A stretch of 39,079 nt of DNA from a virus. Its lineage: Duplodnaviria > Heunggongvirae > Uroviricota > Caudoviricetes. The position numbers and the translations under genes were made by a program. The stretch lies in IMG/VR virus record IMGVR_UViG_2609459839_000001; one strand, 5' to 3'. The notes beneath the pieces are model-generated. The model searched no databases. It was not told the origin of the DNA and saw only the letters and a program-made list of their open reading frames with translations. Below are positions 2,662-27,308 of this stretch, piece after piece. Every line of letters begins with the position of its first letter. The stretch's first letter is position 1.

Positions 2662-3261
2662 TCAGAATTTATAACCGACACCCACGATAAAACCGTCAGT
2701 GCGCCAGTCACCACTGCCGGAGCCTTCATAAGCAATATCAATGGCCACGGATTCGGTCGGGTTAAACTGCACGCCAGCTCCCCACGCCAGAGAGGTGTTA
2801 CTGTGGCGAGCGTCATCACTTCCGGTCAGCACGTCGTGCGTTTTTCCCTTGTTGTCAGTTACGCGGAGATAATCCCCGGAAAAAGTCGACACACGGCTGT
2901 AAGCCACGCCTGCCATCGCATACGCGCTGAACCATTCATTCACGCGCACAGATGGCCCCGCCATCATGCTGAACCAGCGGTTACGCACTGAATCTTCATG
3001 CCAGCGGGTATCACTGTAACGGGTAATCTGGCGATTCTTGTCTCCGGCATAACTGAATGACGTCACCAGCCCCAGCGTGTCCGTAAATTCATAACGGTAT
3101 TTCACGTTAATGCCCTTCAGGTCATCGTTGCCGGGCATATCAGTATGGGACTGAATATACCCGGAGCTTAGTGTGGACTGATGCTCTGCTGCACTCGCTG
3201 GCGTACCAGCGGCAACCAGCCAGACTACTGCGGACAGAATAACAGCACATAATTTACGCAT
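2662..3261 (-). CDS. lom: Lom/Ail/PagC-family outer-membrane beta-barrel protein
   Basis: 199 aa, signal peptide [25 protein letters not shown]-terminal ...GVGYKF; position immediately after J as in lambda. Confidence 0.85.
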
Positions 3262-3328
3262 AATTACCTCTCGCTTTTCTGCAATAAAAAAGGCGCCATT
3301 TCTGGCGCCCGTATCTGGGTTATAAAAT

Positions 3329-6300
3329 TCAGCTAATCGTGATGCCTGCAGTGGCTTTCTTCATCACAACAACCAGCAAATCGCTGATACTTGCTGTGGG
3401 ATACCAACCATTTACCCACCATGCTGATACAGAAAACTCCAGTGTCATTACGCCACTGCCTGCAGGCATATCAATAACACCCGTGTATATCAGCGTATTA
3501 TCCAGAGCCGTTCGGTTATAAATTTCAGCCCCGTTTTTCTTCACTATCAGGCGGCATGACGAATAAGTATCGCTATTCTCCCGCTCATGTCTGGCACCGC
3601 TGAAAGCCACCGCAGGAATAACAATTTGCCGGTCAAACGGCTGATCGTCATAAACCCTGACGGTAATGGTCCCTGATGGCCACCGCTCCGGTGCACGGGA
3701 GTCCCGGGGGAAAGCTTTGCCCACTGTTTTAACGAGATCGCCTTCAATCTGGTTCGCGGACAGTTTTCCCAGAACCCGACAGTTCTCGTTAATCGTGACG
3801 TTGTTGAGCGTCCCTGAATTTGCATTCACATTACCGCTGATATCCGCATTTTTAGCGGTCAACTTTCCGTCCGGTGTCAGGGAAAATGCCGGCGGATTTC
3901 CACCGCTGGTAATGGTGGGAGCCGTCAGGCGTTTCAGGAACACGTCGTTCATGAATATCTGGTTGCCCTGCGCCACAAACATCGGCGTTTCATTCCCGTT
4001 TGCCGGGTCAATAAACGCGATACGATTGGCGGCAACCAGAAACTGGCTCAGCTTGCCTTCCTCCGTGTCCTCCATGCTGAGGCCAATACCCGCGACATAA
4101 TGTTTGCCGTCTTTGGTCTGCTCAATTTTGACGCCCCACATAGCATTCCATTTATCGTTAGCGTCCTTCCACTCTTTCGAAAACTCATCCAGTCTGCTGG
4201 CGTTATCCTCCGTCAGGTCGACTTTTTTCAGCAGCTCTTTACCGAGATGGGATTCGGTTATCTTGCCTTTGAAAAAATCCAGGTAACCTTCCGCATCATC
4301 GCTCGCCCGACCGACGGCCTCCACGAATGCCGATTTGCCAACGGTGTTCACACTGCGGATATAAAAGTAATAATCATGGCCCGGTTTGATATTGATACTG
4401 GCGGCTATCCAGTACAGCCCCGTGCCAAGGTAGCGGGCTGTGGTTTCAACCTGCCTGATATCGGTAATCCGCGTTTCCGAGAACCAGAACTCAAACTGTA
4501 CCGTCGGATCATAAACCGCAAGATGCGGCGTGGCAGTTATCTGAAAATAGCCCGGCGTCAGCTCAATCCGCGACGGCGCTGCCGGGGCGGCAATCCGGAA
4601 CGATACCGATGCCGGATCGCCCTGCTGCCCCCAGGCATTTGCCGCCCGGACTGTCAGCCTGTAGTTTCCCAGCGCCAGTTGCGTGAAGCGGTATGTGGTT
4701 TCCGTCGTCCGGGCCGTGCTGACCAGCCGCTCACTGCCGTCATCCGCTGCCACGGTCAGGCGAAGCATAAAGCTCACACCCTTCACCACCTTCGGCGTAT
4801 CCCAGCGCGCCAGCACCTGGTATTCCCCGCTGTCTGCGGTGACTTCGGCAGTCAGATGCTGCACTGCTGGCGGTGTGACCCCGTTCACCGTGCCGCTCTG
4901 GTCGCCGTCAAAGTGCGCCCCGTTATCCACGATGGCCTCTTTTTCCGGTACATGCTGCACGGCGGTGATGGCATACGTGCCGTCGTCGTTCTCACGGATA
5001 CTCACGCAGCGGAACAGGCGCTGGCGCAACGTCGGCAGCTTCAGCCCCCATACGCTGTATTCAGCAACGCCGTCAGGAACACGGCTCACTTTCACCTTCA
5101 CGCCGTCGGTGACGGACTGAACCTCCACGCTGACCGGACTCCCCTGCCCGTCAACCAGGCTTATCAGCGTGGTGCCGGAAGATGGCAGCGTGATTTCACG
5201 GTCGAGCGTCAGCGTCCGGGTCTGGCTGTTTACCGCCAGCACGCGCCCGCCGGTGCGGATACCGGCATAGTCATCATCGCAGATTTCAATGACATCCCCC
5301 GGTACATGGCGAAGCCCTTCGGCACCCACGCTGAAGTCCACGGTCTGCGTTTCCAGCAGTTCTGTTTTAATCAGCCACAGCCCGGCGCGGTGTGCCTGCC
5401 CCCGGCTGGTACAGCCAAAAGCATCCATCTTCGTGACGTTACGACCGTAACGGGCAATGGCCTGCGTGTCCTCCACAAGCTCTGTCGCCGTCTCCCAGCC
5501 GTTATTCGGGTCAATCCAGTTCACCTCAACGGCATTATGGCGGTCCTTCAGGGCGCTGAAGCTGTAGCGGAACGGCGCACCATCATCCGGCATCACCACA
5601 TTACTGCGGTTATAGGTCCACACCTTATCCGACCGTCGGTCCTGCACGAACGTCAGCGTCTGCCCGTTCCATACCGGCATACAGCGCATCGCCGAGCAGA
5701 AATCACTGAGCACATCCCACGCCTTGCGCTGCGTGGTCATGTACGCATTACAGGTGATGCGCGGCTCCGTGCCACCAAAGCCATCCGGCACCGACTGGTC
5801 GCAATTCTGGCCGATGACATACAGCGCCCATTTATCCACATCCGCCGCACCAAGACGTTTCCCCATGCCGTAGCGCGGATGGGTCAGCATATCCCACAGA
5901 CACCAGGCCATGTTGTTGCTGTATGCTGGCTTAAACGTTCCGTCCCAGATACCGCTGTATTGCCGCGTCTGCGGGTTATAGTTCGACGGCACCTGCAGAA
6001 TACGCCCGCGAAGATGATAATTACGGCTCACCTGCTGACTGCCGAACTGTTCCGAGTCCACCTGCACGCCGACCAGTGCCGTGTTCGGGTAGCACTGTTT
6101 CACATCGATGATTTCGGTGTATGACGACCAGAGCGTTTTGTTCTGCAGCTGGTCTGTGGTGCTGTCCGGCGTCATCCTGCGCATCCGGATATTAAACGGG
6201 CGCGGCGGCAGGTTATCCACCACTACCGATGCCAGATACTGCGAGGTGGTTTTGCCCTTAATGGTGATGTCTTTTTCCGTCACCCAGCCACCGTTACGTT

Positions 6301-22810: not shown

Positions 22811-23173
22811 TCAGTAACGACCGCGCCTTCCGGTAATTTCATACCGGCAAATACCGGACAGCCCGGGGATCGTTATCCGCAGCTGGTTAGCCAGGGAGTT
22901 AATCTCAGCGACCAACACTGGCTTCGTATAGCGCCATGCCGCCAGCCCTTGTCCACAGAAGCTCGCCATATCTTTTTTCTGATCAAACTCATGACACTTC
23001 ATATTGAGCTGCGCACTTAAGCTGTTGCGATGCTGAAGTTCTCCGGTGAAGTAGTCATCCAGGACTTTATAGGCTGCATATTTAAATCCGGGGTTTAGCC
23101 ATGCTGCATAATCATAAGCAACAAACTTCCCGCCATATGTTCCACCGTGTACACCGCGCTCAGTAAAAACCAC
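22811..23173 (-). CDS. KilA-N-like domain protein, probably N-terminally truncated remnant
   Basis: HGGTYGGKFVAYDYAAWLNPGF resembles the C-terminal half of a KilA-N/APSES domain; ORF starts with GTG immediately after Rz with no room for the N-terminal half. Confidence 0.35.
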   Translation of the reverse strand: MVFTERGVHGGTYGGKFVAYDYAAWLNPGFKYAAYKVLDDYFTGELQHRNSLSAQLNMKCHEFDQKKDMASFCGQGLAAWRYTKPVLVAEINSLANQLRITIPGLSGICRYEITGRRGRY

Positions 23174-23194
23174 AGATTCGTGTTTTTTCTCCAG

Positions 23195-23662
23195 CTACTT
23201 AATGCGCTGGGTGCGGATATATTCCTGCGCCCCTTCCAGTTGCTTCTGCATCGTCATCAACCGTTCTCTGAGGGTGAAATAATCCCGTTCAGCGGTGTCT
23301 GCCAGTCGGGGGCTGGTTGCATTATCCATGCTGGTGGGTCCGGTGGCTTCACGCACGGCTGCGGAGCAACTGGCATTGACCCGCAGGCGCTTACGACCAG
23401 CGGCAACATCAGCGCGCAGAGTTTCATTTTCAGTTTTCGCATCGGCTAACTCCTTCGTGTATTTTGCATCGATCGCAGCAACATCACGCTGACGCTGCTG
23501 CATGTCAGCGATGGTGGCGGTCGCCTGCTTCAGCTCACTGACTTTTTTATCACGCTGTTCTTTGTAGGCGATGGCGTTATCACGGTAATGATTCAGCCCC
23601 AGACTAAGCACAACACAGGCCACCAGCAGCATAGCAATCACTACATACAGAACACGGTTCAT
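23195..23662 (-). CDS. Rz: i-spanin Rz
   Basis: N-terminal TM helix MNRVLYVVIAMLLVACVVLS, coiled-coil body; ATG 23662 preceded by GGTGGTG. Confidence 0.85.
   Translation of the reverse strand: MNRVLYVVIAMLLVACVVLSLGLNHYRDNAIAYKEQRDKKVSELKQATATIADMQQRQRDVAAIDAKYTKELADAKTENETLRADVAAGRKRLRVNASCSAAVREATGPTSMDNATSPRLADTAERDYFTLRERLMTMQKQLEGAQEYIRTQRIK
23257..23442 (-). CDS. Rz1: o-spanin Rz1 (embedded in Rz in +1 frame)
   Basis: 61 aa, lipobox VVSAC, proline-rich (PPDPPAWIMQPAPDWQTPLNGIISPSE), as lambda Rz1. Confidence 0.8.
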   Translation of the reverse strand: MRKLKMKLCALMLPLVVSACGSMPVAPQPCVKPPDPPAWIMQPAPDWQTPLNGIISPSENG

Positions 23663-23746
23663 ATCACCACCAACGGATTGCCCAGACCAGAACAGCGACC
23701 GCCACAAGGCGAATTGCAAAGGCCGTTGCCCGAATAAAATCAGCAC

Positions 23747-23896
23747 TCATCTGTTTAAATAAATTGTTGTGTATGCAACCAGTGCAGTACAAATAATCCA
23801 TGCAACTGGCGTCAGTATATGTCTGATGCCCCGGCATACCGCGATGATTTTTGCGGCATCGTCAGCACCCTGCGAAGTTGTTTCTGCTTTTATCAT
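23747..23896 (-). CDS. small ORF (49 aa) with C-terminal hydrophobic helix, between endolysin and Rz
   Basis: MIKAETTSQGADDAAKIIAVCRGIRHILTPVAWIICTALVAYTTIYLNR; stop is 1 nt before Rz GTG; weak SD. Confidence 0.3.
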   Translation of the reverse strand: MIKAETTSQGADDAAKIIAVCRGIRHILTPVAWIICTALVAYTTIYLNR

Positions 23897-24060
23897 CAGT
23901 TGCCATGTCCCTCATGACACCCATCACCACTCACGATTTCAGAGCAACAATCAATTTTGCCAGCCCATACAGCATCGGAGACACGGCGATGCCAACCGCC
24001 ACCCACTTAATGGCAAAAGCCACCGCCCGGATAAGGCAGAGATTCGCCGTATTTTCTGTC

Positions 24061-24165
24061 TTATCTACAAACATATGCTATCGCTGCAACCGCAAAACCA
24101 ATTGCCCCGATCATTGCCGATAATGCAAGAATAATTCCGGCAATATTTGCTGCTTTAGGTGTCAT
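24061..24165 (-). CDS. small hydrophobic ORF (34 aa), putative single-pass membrane peptide
   Basis: MTPKAANIAGIILALSAMIGAIGFAVAAIAYVCR; SD-like AGGGTG 6 nt before ATG. Confidence 0.35.
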   Translation of the reverse strand: MTPKAANIAGIILALSAMIGAIGFAVAAIAYVCR

Positions 24166-24245
24166 ACTGCACCCTATACTCAGAAAGGTTTTATTGTTAT
24201 CCTTTACCTGCATGAATTATATCCATGTCTGATTTGTCAAAATGC

Positions 24246-24285
24246 AACCCCGGACTGTTCCCCCAGCCGGGGTTTTACTTTTATT
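24246..24285 (+). terminator. hairpin with U-tract on plus strand, antisense to lysis genes
   Basis: AACCCCGG-13 nt loop-CCGGGGTT followed by TTTTACTTTTATT. Confidence 0.35.
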
Positions 24286-24364
24286 CACTTACCTTTTGCC
24301 AGTTTGCAGGATTTCGTGTTATCCGCTCGCGGGAGCACACGCCATTTTTCAGCAAAATATTCTG

Positions 24365-24898
24365 CTAGCTGTCGATACCCCAGCACACCAGTGCCGCTTC
24401 CTGGTCACGGCGAATAACCTGTCCATAGCAGTTATTTGAACGTATGCGGCAATCGCGCCCACCATCTTTTATCCACCAGCGAATCGCCTCGCATGCACCC
24501 TTACGATCACCGGCATTCAGCCGCTTATAAAACGTCGACGGGAAACACTTACCGGGGCCAATGTTATAGGGACAAAATGACGCTATACCCGCTTTCTGTG
24601 GTTCGGTCAGTGGTACTTTAATATTGCGCTCCACCCATGCCAGCGCCTTATCACGTTCAATAGCGTTAACCTGGTCGCATTCTTCCTTCGACAGCTTCAT
24701 TCCCGGTATGACGGGCTTACCATCCACCATTGTGGCACCACGACAGATGGTCCATATACCGGAACCATCGCGGTATGCCGTTGTGTGGTTACCTTCTTTT
24801 TCATTCAGAAACTGGTCGAGAATATCAGGCGCAGGCGCACCGACGGCAATCAGTGCCAGAACGGCAGCCGACAGGCCGTATCTGATTTTTACGTTCAT
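24365..24898 (-). CDS. SAR endolysin (GH24 T4-type lysozyme)
   Basis: 177 aa; N-terminal hydrophobic SAR/signal segment LSAAVLALIAVGAPA; catalytic E-x8-D-x5-T (EGNHTTAYRDGSGIWT). Confidence 0.9.
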   Translation of the reverse strand: MNVKIRYGLSAAVLALIAVGAPAPDILDQFLNEKEGNHTTAYRDGSGIWTICRGATMVDGKPVIPGMKLSKEECDQVNAIERDKALAWVERNIKVPLTEPQKAGIASFCPYNIGPGKCFPSTFYKRLNAGDRKGACEAIRWWIKDGGRDCRIRSNNCYGQVIRRDQEAALVCWGIDS

Positions 24899-25003
24899 GG
24901 ATATTTATCAGGATTTATCGGTTTCTGAACCCTGGATATGTTTATCTGTCCCGGCCTGTTGAATCAGGCAAGGAATAGTTAAATACAATAGAGAGGATTG
25001 TTT

Positions 25004-25276
25004 ATGGACAATAGCACCATTTCTCTACAGGAGTTGCTCGACTGCATTTCCAAGCTTCGGGATGATGTAAATGCCCTTACTGTCGCATTTTCATATCTGG
25101 CATTCTCAATTCCCAAGGAACAAATGCAACCAACACTGGCATCGCTCCAGCTTGAATCACTCAACCCCAAATGGTCCCAGCAACAACAAAATTCTTTCAA
25201 GTGGCTGGCGGTATTACTGGAAGAAAAATATGCTGGTGAAATTACCATTTCGGCGGAGTCTTCAGAGAACCAGTAA
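25004..25276 (+). CDS. hypothetical protein encoded antisense within the lysis cassette
   Basis: 90 aa, ATG 25004 preceded by strong SD GAGAGGA; 3' end overlaps convergent gene 25242-25586. Confidence 0.45.
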   Translation: MDNSTISLQELLDCISKLRDDVNALTVAFSYLAFSIPKEQMQPTLASLQLESLNPKWSQQQQNSFKWLAVLLEEKYAGEITISAESSENQ

Positions 25277-25586
25277 TTCTTCCCGGTAGCTTTCCTTTGT
25301 AGGTTATCCACACATTCTGCGCCTCTAAAATTATGGGGCGCTTTTCCGGCGACAGCTCATCCCCTTCACATAACCCGGCAGCAACATCCAGGAAGACCTG
25401 TCTGATGCTCCTTCTGGCTGCTGCCTCATAAAACTCCAGCGCGGCACCTTCAACACGGTCCAGCGAGATGTCCAGGTCAAAAATTTCACCGTCAAAGCGT
25501 TTTTTGTCCCGTAACGCTAAAGTTACCGTAACTTTATTCTCAAAATTGCGGATCCCTTTCACAATCAGTTCATAGTTTTGAATCAT
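25242..25586 (-). CDS. lysis-cassette protein of unknown function (YdfR-like; DUF number not verified)
   Basis: 114 aa between holin and endolysin, same position as ydfR in Qin. Confidence 0.55.
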   Translation of the reverse strand: MIQNYELIVKGIRNFENKVTVTLALRDKKRFDGEIFDLDISLDRVEGAALEFYEAAARRSIRQVFLDVAAGLCEGDELSPEKRPIILEAQNVWITYKGKLPGRITGSLKTPPKW

Positions 25587-25590
25587 TGAA

Positions 25591-25806
25591 TTACTCTCCC
25601 CGTGCAGCCTTACGCTTGTCTTCTCTGATTTTGAAGTACAGATTTGTCAGATAAGTCAGGAAGCCCAGAATCAGACTCCCCAGTACACCAATCGCAGCCC
25701 ACTGTGACGGACTGACCTGATCAAGCCACTGTAAAAACCAGTAGCCAGCACTGCCTGCGGAGGTGCCATAGGCAATGCCCGTTGAAATTTTGTCCATGGA
25801 TTTCAT
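25591..25806 (-). CDS. class II holin / pinholin, phage 21 S-type
   Basis: 71 aa [45 protein letters not shown]... near-identical to my recollection of S21; SD GGAGGTGA. Confidence 0.9.
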
Positions 25807-25865
25807 AGCCTCACCTCCGCAAATAACGGATGGCGTAGTTTTACACTGAGAAATGAAAGGGATTT

Positions 25866-25891
25866 GAAAAGAAAAGCCCGCAAAAGCGGGC
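25866..25891 (-). terminator. rho-independent terminator upstream of holin (tR'-like)
   Basis: GCCCGC aaaa GCGGGC followed on minus strand by TTTTCTTTTC. Confidence 0.55.
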
Positions 25892-26098
25892 GAAACGATA
25901 TATACAGTAAGGAAAGCACTCTATCCAACAAACCACCCACAGTTAATCGGAATAAAAGCAGAGTGCTTATGAATGATCGCCTGCCCGAAGGTTAGTATTT
26001 CTGCACAGCAATTTTGCAAAAAAAGGCGATCATTCATAACTTAAACGTCTTTCAGTCACTCCGGGATTTCCCATCATCGCAGACTGAAAGACTCTGAC

Positions 26099-26173
<75 letters not shown>

Positions 26174-26176
26174 ATA

Positions 26177-26252
<76 letters not shown>

Positions 26253-26254
26253 AC

Positions 26255-26331
26255 TGGACCGCCACCGGGGACTCGAACCTCGCACACTCAACTTAAAGGG
26301 TTGACGCTCTTTCCTGATGAGCCAGTGGCGG
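26255..26331 (-). tRNA. aberrant tRNA-like gene, anticodon UUU (Lys) if functional; possible pseudo-tRNA
   Basis: CCGCCAC acceptor with CCA end and TTCGAGT T-loop, but C at position 33, atypical D-loop, and an A-C mismatch in T-stem. Confidence 0.45.
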
Positions 26332-26332
26332 T

Positions 26333-26408
26333 TGGTGGCCCTTGCTGGATTTGAACCAGCGACCTGGCGATTATGAGTCGCTCGCTCTCACCACTGAGCT
26401 AAAGGGCC
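26333..26408 (-). tRNA. tRNA with anticodon CAU (Met or Ile2/lysidine type, ileX/ileZ-like)
   Basis: GGCCCTT acceptor, anticodon loop CTCATAA, TTCAAAT T-loop, CCA end; resembles E. coli ileX. Confidence 0.75.
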
Positions 26409-26528
26409 GGGCGCAGGATAATAACGTTACGAAATCAATGTTGCAAGCATTCAAGAATTACCTGGTTAAAAATTACCCTTACTTCCTCCACCAGCGCATT
26501 CACCATGTCTATCCGAGATAAGTGGCAC

Positions 26529-26554
26529 AAAAAAACCCGCTTGTGGGCGGGTTT
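26529..26554 (-). terminator. hairpin terminator (bidirectional) ~65 nt downstream of Q-like gene
   Basis: AAACCCGC ttgtgg GCGGGTTT with T-runs on both sides. Confidence 0.5.
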
Positions 26555-26618
26555 TGTTTGCTTTTGCCATCACGTACAAAATCGGCAAAATATCAGATTT
26601 GCATGAAATATATGCCTT

Positions 26619-27308
26619 TCAATCTGCTTTTGCAACACTTTGCTTTGAAAATGCCGCCTTTTGTTTTGAACGTGTTCTCATTACAAACAATAAAGCCTCA
26701 CTATCCAGTCGGTGAAAAATGTGTTTCATTGCAACCCAGTGACGAGTAAATGTTTTGGACCAGTTTTTAGTTGTCACTCCCGCCAGTAATGCCAGCTCCT
26801 GGTATTCATAACCTTCCCCACCAAAAAGTTCTGCTTTTACTTCCTGCGCCGCCAGCCAGATTAATTTTTTCAGGCGTTCCTGCGTTTTCCCTGCAATTTT
26901 TCTGGTACCGGATTGAGTATTAAATTCATTCCACGCCCACTGTGTTATCGCGATCTGATATTCCCAACAAATACTCCCGCTGTAACACCACAACAACCAG
27001 GCTTTATGATGTTCTTCAAGAGACAGAACCGCCCGCCGCCACGATGATGTCGAAAACTCAACCGGACTGACCAGAGGAATTGACATCCCCTTCGCCAGCG
27101 ATTGCTTTCCCGGGATTGGTGGATTATCCCGCGTTATCATTTTTCCAGTCACTTCATCGCGGTACCGGATTTTTTTACGCCTGTAACGCCCTGTATCAAA
27201 CATGGCATTCTCCTGCCAGGCCTCAAGCTGCCCTTTTGTTGATCCACTCAAATCGGCGGTGGCAATCATGAGTTGCTCACGAACAAACTGTAAATACTGG
27301 TTATTCAT
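26619..27308 (-). CDS. putative late-gene antiterminator (Q-like, by position)
   Basis: 229 aa, canonical Q position (after RusA, before tRNAs/lysis genes), ATG overlaps RusA stop; no zinc-finger motif seen so family assignment is tentative. Confidence 0.5.
   Translation of the reverse strand: MNNQYLQFVREQLMIATADLSGSTKGQLEAWQENAMFDTGRYRRKKIRYRDEVTGKMITRDNPPIPGKQSLAKGMSIPLVSPVEFSTSSWRRAVLSLEEHHKAWLLWCYSGSICWEYQIAITQWAWNEFNTQSGTRKIAGKTQERLKKLIWLAAQEVKAELFGGEGYEYQELALLAGVTTKNWSKTFTRHWVAMKHIFHRLDSEALLFVMRTRSKQKAAFSKQSVAKAD

Follow-up and report, generated by a model that had tools for sequence, protein, structure and literature searches.

A mosaic array of small membrane-peptide genes behind a terminator-like hairpin between the endolysin and spanin genes of a lambdoid prophage

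The viral DNA analysed here, a stretch of 39,079 nucleotides (nt) assigned to the Caudoviricetes (IMG/VR record IMGVR_UViG_2609459839_000001; "the window"), is a lambdoid prophage. Its endolysin gene R and i-spanin gene Rz are 702 nt apart, while in the cassette of the same type in the Qin prophage of Escherichia coli K-12 the genes rrrQ and rzpQ overlap by 4 nt, which makes the whole R–Rz interval extra DNA. Within this interval we find four tandem short open reading frames (ORFs) on the minus strand, A, B, C and D, of 28–49 amino acids (aa), behind a conserved GC-rich hairpin (HP). The best explanation of these sequences, to which we give somewhat better than even credence, is a mosaic passenger cassette of late-operon inner-membrane peptides, which would be expressed by Q-antiterminated polymerase and translationally coupled into Rz; of the structural and genetic part of this reading we are highly confident. 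The array and its boundaries are as follows.

24365-24898, minus strand: R, phage lysozyme, rrrQ-like (named rrrQ by the Prokaryotic Genome Annotation Pipeline, PGAP; Pfam Phage_lysozyme, 5.9e-25); upstream boundary of the array
24246-24285, both strands: HP, conserved GC-rich stem-loop identified by folding and covariation, at the 5' end of the peptide array
24061-24165, minus strand: ORF A, 34 aa (MTPKAANIAGIILALSAMIGAIGFAVAAIAYVCR), ATG at 24165 and stop at 24061-24063; without PGAP annotation
23931-24074, minus strand: ORF B, 47 aa (WP_000496062); PGAP coding sequence (CDS) in an identical genome
23747-23896, minus strand: ORF C, 49 aa (MIKAETTSQGADDAAKIIAVCRGIRHILTPVAWIICTALVAYTTIYLNR); without PGAP annotation and without a PHROG
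23664-23750, minus strand: ORF D, 28 aa (MSADFIRATAFAIRLVAVAVLVWAIRWW; WP_085950722); PGAP CDS in an identical genome
23195-23662, minus strand: Rz i-spanin, 155 aa (Pfam Phage_lysis, 7.5e-50; PGAP start at ATG 23662); downstream boundary of the array

Results

Four small membrane-peptide genes between R and Rz

No minus-strand ORF of 60 aa or more was found between 23747 and 24290, so that the ORF listing bears out what a first-pass annotation of this stretch, made by a model from the letters, had stated. The same annotation described two short ORFs, which are both real, but it missed B and D, there being four in all. Its inference of small membrane peptides agrees with our results, as the lysis cassette holds four constrained genes, each with a hydrophobic segment. 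In A–D, the best 19-residue Kyte–Doolittle window scores 1.86–2.54 and the net charge is +2 to +3; neither a lipobox Cys context nor a soluble domain of more than about 25 aa was found in the four sequences.

ORF A corresponds to the 34-aa hydrophobic ORF with a Shine–Dalgarno (SD) sequence of the first-pass annotation, and was confirmed as such. It encodes a single Gly/Ala/Ser-rich transmembrane (TM) segment with a grand average of hydropathy (GRAVY) of 1.55, has the SD-like AGGGTG 4 nt upstream of its start (AGGGGG in relatives), and matches phrog_12997 (5.4e-7, with a 50-aa form as query). That 50-aa form, starting at ATG 24213, was rejected, as conservation is limited to the 34-aa core with its SD; the upstream extension is absent from P0005 and L006.

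ORF B matches phrog_1115 (4e-19), phrog_3246 (8.7e-15) and phrog_4493 (1.7e-13). Its homology to relatives begins at residue 16, and it has no SD in the window, native N-terminus and SD having been replaced at a recombination joint between A and B. ORF D matches phrog_4493 (2.4e-6) and a second PHROG (2.3e-5). As B and D both match phrog_1115, 3246 and 4493 and share the family motif RAxAFAI[KR][WL]VAV, we regard them as paralogs, D being the short one. PGAP calls both hypothetical proteins in the identical genome.

ORF C is polar in its N-terminal half and has a TM segment towards the C-terminus, and residues G23, R25, L28, T29 and W33 are invariant across 29 clusters. The first-pass annotation had noted this 49-aa ORF and its hydrophobic C-terminus correctly, but placed its end 1 nt before Rz, which rested on an Rz start at GTG 23746. 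This long form of Rz was rejected: in an identical genome PGAP places the start at ATG 23662, which gives a 155-aa protein whose Pfam Rz domain sets in at residue 29, and the frame of the putative N-terminal extension has a ratio of non-synonymous to synonymous differences (pN/pS) of 0.91, compared to 0.31 for the overlapping frame of D. Since the extension frame is unconstrained, the D frame is constrained, and D precedes another gene elsewhere, it is D and not C that abuts Rz.

The short ORFs are coding sequences under purifying selection

For comparison, about 120 related loci were gathered from annotated genomes and viral contigs, and the order of the peptide genes was surveyed over 128 loci. 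We calculated pN/pS from pairwise Nei–Gojobori counts over distinct sequences. In frame, the values were 0.17 for A, 0.25 for the 33 conserved codons that form the core of B, 0.19 for C and 0.31 for D, whereas the other two sense frames gave 0.55–6.9 (2.58 and 1.15 in the case of A), an asymmetry consistent for all four. Judged by these substitution patterns, A–D are real coding genes under purifying selection.

Protein searches found A in 5 clusters, B in 88 and C in 29; every cluster is "hypothetical" and comes from E. coli, Salmonella or Citrobacter. An exhaustive profile search of 1.84 billion proteins recovered just 8 representative clusters for ORF C. Scans of A–D against Pfam and NCBIfam (E <=1) and with PADLOC gave no match, and the PHROGs matched by A, B and D carry no functional annotation. 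When phage records were searched by tblastn, B matched in 12 temperate E. coli phages only; A and C yielded no match there, probably through the low-complexity filter. Nothing specific was found in the literature on the R–Rz interval, these accessions, the PHROG identifiers or surveys of small phage genes.

Two plus-strand ORFs of 121 and 90 aa were rejected as genes. They have no Pfam or other family match and their frames are not conserved, with stops in 7 and 12, respectively, of 22 homologs of the ORF C segment, in agreement with the earlier impression that the plus-strand ORFs look non-protein-like.

The genes are packed end to end

Genes A and B overlap: the stop of A is found 11 nt into B, and the ATG of B before the end of A. 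The stop of C and the start of D overlap as ATGA, and D closes with TGG-TGG-TGA, an SD-like sequence for Rz that leaves 1 nt to the ATG of that gene. These spacings recur in relatives: the C/D overlap of -4 is kept in 7 distinct junctions, while D is spaced by +1 from Rz in 6 junctions and by +1 from a lipoprotein gene, described below, in 7–8. B or E, a further peptide gene, ends within 8 nt of the next gene in the spanin position in most loci, with exceptions such as an inserted methyltransferase gene. The codons at the C-terminal ends are rich in G and resemble SD sequences (TGGTGGTGA, CTGGGGTGA, GGTGGATAG). As this arrangement shows, the genes are packed for translational coupling.

A two-sided hairpin and no recognisable promoter

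The stem of HP, CCCCGG-CTG/CAG-(T)-CCGGGG, has about 9 pairs and is flanked by an A-tract and, at the opposite end, by a T-tract. The predicted fold has a free energy of -22.3 kcal/mol on the minus (gene) strand (z = -3.9) and of -18.2 kcal/mol on the plus strand (z = -3.3). Related loci hold 31 distinct variants, and one more has the same flanks and a different stem. Over 17 variants, 100% of the cells were paired and 3 pairs were changed on both sides; this covariation score was reached by 0 of 500 shuffles, and slid controls paired at 32–56%. In the window, the antisense tail is TTTTACTTTT and the gene-sense tail TTGCATTTTG, the gene-sense U-tract being interrupted (UUGCAUUUU); most relatives have TTTTCTGTTTCTG on the gene-sense side, a tail that equals or surpasses the antisense one. 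Six to eight of 10 tail positions are T on both sides in nearly all 31 variants, the exceptions being one unrelated regular-expression match, the poly-G variant of L008 and two variants with 4–5 T. HP precedes every kind of peptide array, occurs also without ORF A, and in some loci directly follows endolysin or enterotoxin genes. These features show a shape predicted for a bidirectional intrinsic terminator and not for a dedicated antisense terminator. The plus-strand hairpin with a U-tract proposed at 24246-24285 by the first-pass annotation is therefore real, but the gene strand folds at least as well and has a T-rich tail too.

Neither strand of the interval contained a promoter-like site in a consensus scan, although weak non-consensus promoters may escape such a scan. 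On the plus strand, the same scan found none in 23100-24300. Rfam had no match (E <=1) in the interval when 23100-26700 was scanned; outside it, only tRNAs and weak sub-threshold matches were obtained. A perfect TTGACA and a perfect TATAAT follow HP at a distance of 13 nt from each other, with TATAAT 26 nt after HP. We rejected this pair as a promoter because of the 13-nt spacer and because hexamers and spacing are not conserved: in relatives the second hexamer is GATAAT, and indels of 12–14 nt between HP and A alter the spacing. The cassette of HP and peptide genes thus has no recognisable promoter and is, as far as its sequence tells, promoter-less.

A second terminator-like hairpin at 24023-24039 on the minus strand (CTGCC-TTATCCG-GGCGG followed by TGGCTTTTGC) was rejected as weak (z = -2.2); it lies inside ORF B, exactly at the A/B recombination joint, and is probably incidental. 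A further conserved segment was found between R and HP:

24306-24366, minus strand: conserved non-coding element, about 60 nt long, immediately following the stop codon of R

By blastn, this element is 77–82% identical to L007, L022, L038, L061 and L062; in the other cassette type described below it is located downstream of a 60-aa lipoprotein gene, at the far side of the peptide array.

The peptide genes are shuffled between unrelated lysis cassettes

Cassettes of the kind found in the window (type 1: S21-type holin, DUF1327 protein, lysozyme R of the signal-arrest-release (SAR) type and Rz) contain the arrays HP-A-B-C-D (this window), B-E, E-B-D and B-D, where E denotes a fifth TM peptide of 44 aa (phrog_4906). 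The arrays of an unrelated cassette (type 2: Phage_holin_8, Phage_holin_3_7 and usually a GH108 endolysin, some loci being without a GH108 match) are HP-B-E, HP-C-D, HP-B-C-D, HP-C-B, HP-A-B, HP-B and HP-D, followed by a 60-aa lipoprotein that replaces Rz. This lipoprotein (phrog_7528) has the lipobox LLVGC and a mature part of about 30 aa, and in the surveyed loci its gene follows that of a B, D or E peptide at a distance of <=8 nt. At the type-2 loci L007 (2918-3100), L009, L022-L033 and L061-L064 there is no recognisable Rz/Rz1 within 3 kb.

The modules are not confined to lysis cassettes. HP-C is also found in tail/baseplate operons (L034 at 2867-3532, L004, L035-L037, L040-L045, L047 and L048), downstream of 335-aa and 237-aa genes and upstream of a 122-aa gene, the same two flanks (237-aa and 122-aa) recurring; in some cases two 32-aa peptides that end in IRWR/IRWW (phrog_6632) come next. 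HP-A occurs in addition at a prophage end beside zinT, and D-HP-X-A beside an IS66 element.

The R–Rz interval of the window is itself a patchwork of such pieces. Type-1 relatives share about 85% identity with R and about 95 nt beyond it, and type-1 loci about 87% with D–Rz. Type-2 loci match at 93–96% over 24282-23923, which covers HP, A and the 5' portion of B, and other type-2 loci at 94.6% over 24026-23659, which covers the 3' portion of B as well as C and D as far as the Rz ATG. Some proteins are chimeric, with a C-, D- or E-type N-terminus joined to a B- or C-type C-terminus, and fused E-B ORFs of 80–83 aa have two TM segments; such fusions and chimeras suggest recombination at the conserved motifs, as far as can be judged from the sequences. 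Examples are P0011, P0018, P0022, P0026 and P0032, as well as P0034, P0038 and P0114.

Larger genes also enter the slot after the endolysin, namely the A and B genes of the heat-labile enterotoxin LT-II in L008 (917-2054) and a gene for a 311-aa DNA methyltransferase in L070 (3253-4188), and the slot appears to be an insertion hot-spot for cargo. The LT-II toxin has been described directly 3' of a phage lysozyme, with no ORF of more than 50 codons reported downstream (PMC3252337), which would fit small genes near LT-II having been overlooked. As for the comparison of the R–Rz interval with related prophages, suggested by the first-pass annotation, the genes and HP proved to be conserved as shuffled modules, but the interval itself is absent from the K-12 Qin cassette.

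Genomic context of the cassette

The R–Rz interval recurs at 100% identity in several chromosomes of enterotoxigenic E. coli. Its GC content of 0.43–0.48 compares to 0.51–0.56 in R and Rz, a small gap that is expected for hydrophobic peptides. The neighbouring genes are:

23257-23442, minus strand: Rz1, embedded in Rz, an ORF with a lipobox
25242-25586, minus strand: DUF1327 protein
25591-25806, minus strand: S21-type holin (Phage_holin_2_1, Pfam)
26102-26408, minus strand: four tRNA genes between Q and the holin gene
26619-27308, minus strand: putative Q antiterminator, a 229-aa ORF matching a CDS of a related genome in size and position

R has the hydrophobic N-terminus typical of SAR endolysins. 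The assignment of Q was made by size and position relative to a CDS named "bacteriophage antitermination protein Q" in a related genome. Putative Q, RusA and the four tRNAs lie upstream of the interval, on the same strand as the genes for the holin, the DUF1327 protein, R and Rz, which places the interval inside a Q-dependent late operon. Weak sub-threshold Rfam matches (isrK/isrJ and leader families) were seen just downstream of Q, at 26526-26610 on the minus strand; we take this region to be the expected site of the lambdoid late promoter and a short leader transcript.

The gap between the DUF1327 gene and R measures 343 nt here (24899-25241) and, by coordinates, 55 nt in strain 214-4. It contains a 92-aa ORF on the opposite strand (24998-25276, plus) without a Pfam match; at the analogous position, phage PhiR5_1 has an opposite-strand "DUF1823" gene. 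Downstream of Rz, a 120-aa ORF (22811-23173, minus) carries an ORF11CD3 domain (Pfam, 5.7e-12) and is a "DNA-binding protein" according to PGAP in the identical genome.

Discussion

The mosaic cassette that we favour would work as follows. With no promoter recognised in the array, the peptides would be made only when Q-modified polymerase coming from the late promoter passes HP, so that in the lysogen HP would hold expression of the membrane-active peptides and of Rz/Rz1 to a low level or none; other possible roles for HP are those of a recombination linker and of a stabiliser of the endolysin message. After translating C and D, ribosomes would be passed on to Rz. The peptides would enter the cytoplasmic membrane at a late stage of infection, where they would most likely serve as accessory but dispensable envelope factors that tune the action of holin, endolysin or spanin. 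Such an accessory function in lysis, which the first-pass annotation had also proposed and which is reasonable from the position of the genes, we put forward only tentatively, since HP-C occurs in the tail operon as well and no peptide family is universal.

Several observations weigh against this reading. HP-C lies between virion structural genes in 13 of the 39 ORF C loci, about a third, as well as in the Citrobacter locus L004, so that the peptides are not lysis-specific; and because no family is universal and the K-12 Qin cassette manages without all of them, they are dispensable for lysis. In the window, the gene-sense T-tract (TTGCATTTTG) is weaker than the antisense one (TTTTACTTTT), and ORF B may be poorly expressed or a recombination scar. 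Moreover, the related loci were found via homology to B and C, which biases the census, and the pairs behind the pN/pS values are non-independent and carry no tree correction.

The main rival, which we nevertheless consider unlikely, is that the genes are morons expressed in the lysogen from weak promoters of their own and beneficial to the host, for example by superinfection exclusion in the manner of HK97 gp15. It would account for an interval that is extra compared to K-12 Qin and slightly lower in GC than R and Rz, for a slot that holds classic conversion cargo such as LT-II (PMC3252337) and the methyltransferase, and for tail-operon copies, which recall the location of HK97 gene 15 (PMC3594210); rapid shuffling, presence/absence variation and chimeras are likewise typical of accessory, conflict-related genes. 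Even a perfect TATAAT is at hand 26 nt after HP, but its partner TTGACA is separated by the non-conserved 13-nt spacer, and the consensus scan detected no promoter. Furthermore, the genes have their terminator upstream instead of downstream and are linked to late genes by translational coupling, and there is no Pfam match to YebO/gp15 and no PADLOC match. Coupling also underlies a second and quite improbable alternative, in which the small ORFs, chiefly D, serve as leaders that deliver ribosomes to Rz or to the lipoprotein gene and the peptides are by-products. While the end of D 1 nt before the next ATG, be it that of Rz or of the unrelated 60-aa lipoprotein, and the G-rich SD-like C-terminal codons (TGGTGGTGA, CTGGGGTGA, GGTGGATAG) are what this alternative predicts, purifying selection extends over whole peptides and not over their 3' ends alone, invariant residues are found in the middle of C and B, and the peptides are consistently TM-like.

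Still less probable, indeed very much so, is a type I toxin–antitoxin (TA) system in which ORF A or another peptide is a toxin repressed by a plus-strand RNA that terminates at HP. A is a hydrophobic 34-aa peptide with small-residue repeats, HP, about 80 nt upstream of the start of A, carries a good U-tract on the plus strand, an RNA ending there would be complementary to the 5' region of A, and the HP-A unit moves as a block. Yet there is no plus-strand promoter-like site in 23100-24300, no Rfam family and no match to an NCBIfam or Pfam type I toxin family. Nor is HP specific for A: it also fronts B, C or D arrays without A and follows endolysin or LT-II genes, its gene-sense tail TTTTCTGTTTCTG is as good or better in most variants, and the HP-A region varies by 12–14-nt indels. 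The suggestion of a toxin-like peptide, possibly with an antisense RNA, made in the first-pass annotation is accordingly not upheld, HP being two-sided and the searches for promoter, Rfam and toxin family having found nothing. Finally, one could dismiss the ORFs as chance frames in a non-coding spacer or a decayed remnant, considering how short they are, that just two of the four are annotated, and that B of the window has no SD and a chimeric N-terminus; this is scarcely credible, as the pN/pS frame asymmetry in all four refutes it for A, C, D and the core of B, and as conservation of the families extends over E. coli, Salmonella and Citrobacter, and three match PHROG profiles.

Within the mosaic cassette reading one can go further, albeit into doubtful territory. 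The endolysin–spanin slot might be a combinatorial site for at least five families of membrane peptides of 28–50 residues (A, B/D, C and E, with F in tail operons), forming a new class of lysis components that is always fronted by HP and coupled to the gene for outer-membrane disruption; in Rac-like cassettes without Rz/Rz1, B, D or E together with the 60-aa lipoprotein (phrog_7528) might then constitute a minimal non-spanin apparatus that carries out the final step of lysis.

The immediate consequence is a corrected local annotation, with four genes, of which A and C are unannotated in the RefSeq copies, and a moved Rz start. B and D were already known as hypothetical proteins, A, B and D are represented in PHROGs, and the general kind, small membrane-protein passenger genes in a late operon together with an intrinsic terminator, is known as well; recurrent combinatorial arrays headed by a terminator in the endolysin–spanin slot were not found in the literature searched. 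The stretch after prophage lysozymes, reported to be without ORFs of more than 50 codons at LT-II loci for example, would accordingly consist of conserved, shuffled membrane-peptide genes behind a terminator. If the peptides modulate lysis or exclusion, they would add new components to one of the best-studied phage pathways; if they modulate neither, they would be ordinary uncharacterised passenger genes.

Comparison with known systems

By their position, A–D resemble holins, antiholins, the pinholin S21 and the Mu releasin, being small membrane proteins a few genes away from an endolysin, and, as for accessory lysis proteins, their cassette includes an endolysin of the SAR type and a holin of the S21 type. 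Unlike accessory lysis proteins, the same peptides also accompany the soluble GH108 endolysin and occur in tail operons. As holins or antiholins they were rejected: there is no Pfam holin match, A scores only E = 0.036–0.064 against the holin phrog_526, and the cassette has its own holin. The Mu releasin gp25, a DUF2730 protein, has an N-out TM domain and a cytoplasmic domain of about 73 aa (PMC9239132); A–D are too short, have no cytoplasmic domain and do not match DUF2730 in Pfam. A role as spanins was likewise rejected, as they have neither a lipobox nor a long periplasmic domain and Rz/Rz1 are separately present, and so was one as exclusion proteins of the HK97 gp15/YebO kind, for which neither Pfam (YebO) nor PADLOC gave a match.

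With the type I TA systems hok/sok, ldr/rdl, ibs/sib and tisB/istR the cassette shares hydrophobic peptides of 28–50 aa, a mobile element and a stable hairpin nearby. It differs from them in being embedded in a late operon and in having no antisense RNA gene or promoter, no toxin-specific promoter, no structured 5' untranslated region and no family match; for A–D, Pfam and NCBIfam (E <=1) gave no match to the described toxin families (Hok, Ldr, Ibs, TisB, ShoB, DinQ, ZorO and others).

A closer likeness is to the moron as defined by Juhala and Hendrix, with HK97 gene 15 and lambda bor and lom as examples (PMC3594210). Like a moron, the cassette is extra DNA between genes that are adjacent in a relative, its products are small membrane proteins, it is shuffled horizontally, copies occur in tail operons, and LT-II occupies the same slot; its slightly lower GC content may be a further likeness or may simply reflect the hydrophobic peptides. 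However, a moron has its own promoter, whereas the cassette is without a recognisable one, and a moron carries its terminator downstream of the gene, whereas that of the cassette is at the 5' end, the sole downstream candidate (24039-24023) being weak. The genes of the cassette are also set apart by their coupling to the flanking late genes, and they have no sequence relation to gp15/YebO.

HP, in turn, is comparable to bidirectional Rho-independent terminators, with which it shares a GC-rich stem of about 9 pairs, compensatory changes and a U-tract on either strand. While such terminators are usually placed between convergent genes, HP would represent a case between co-directional genes, inside an operon.

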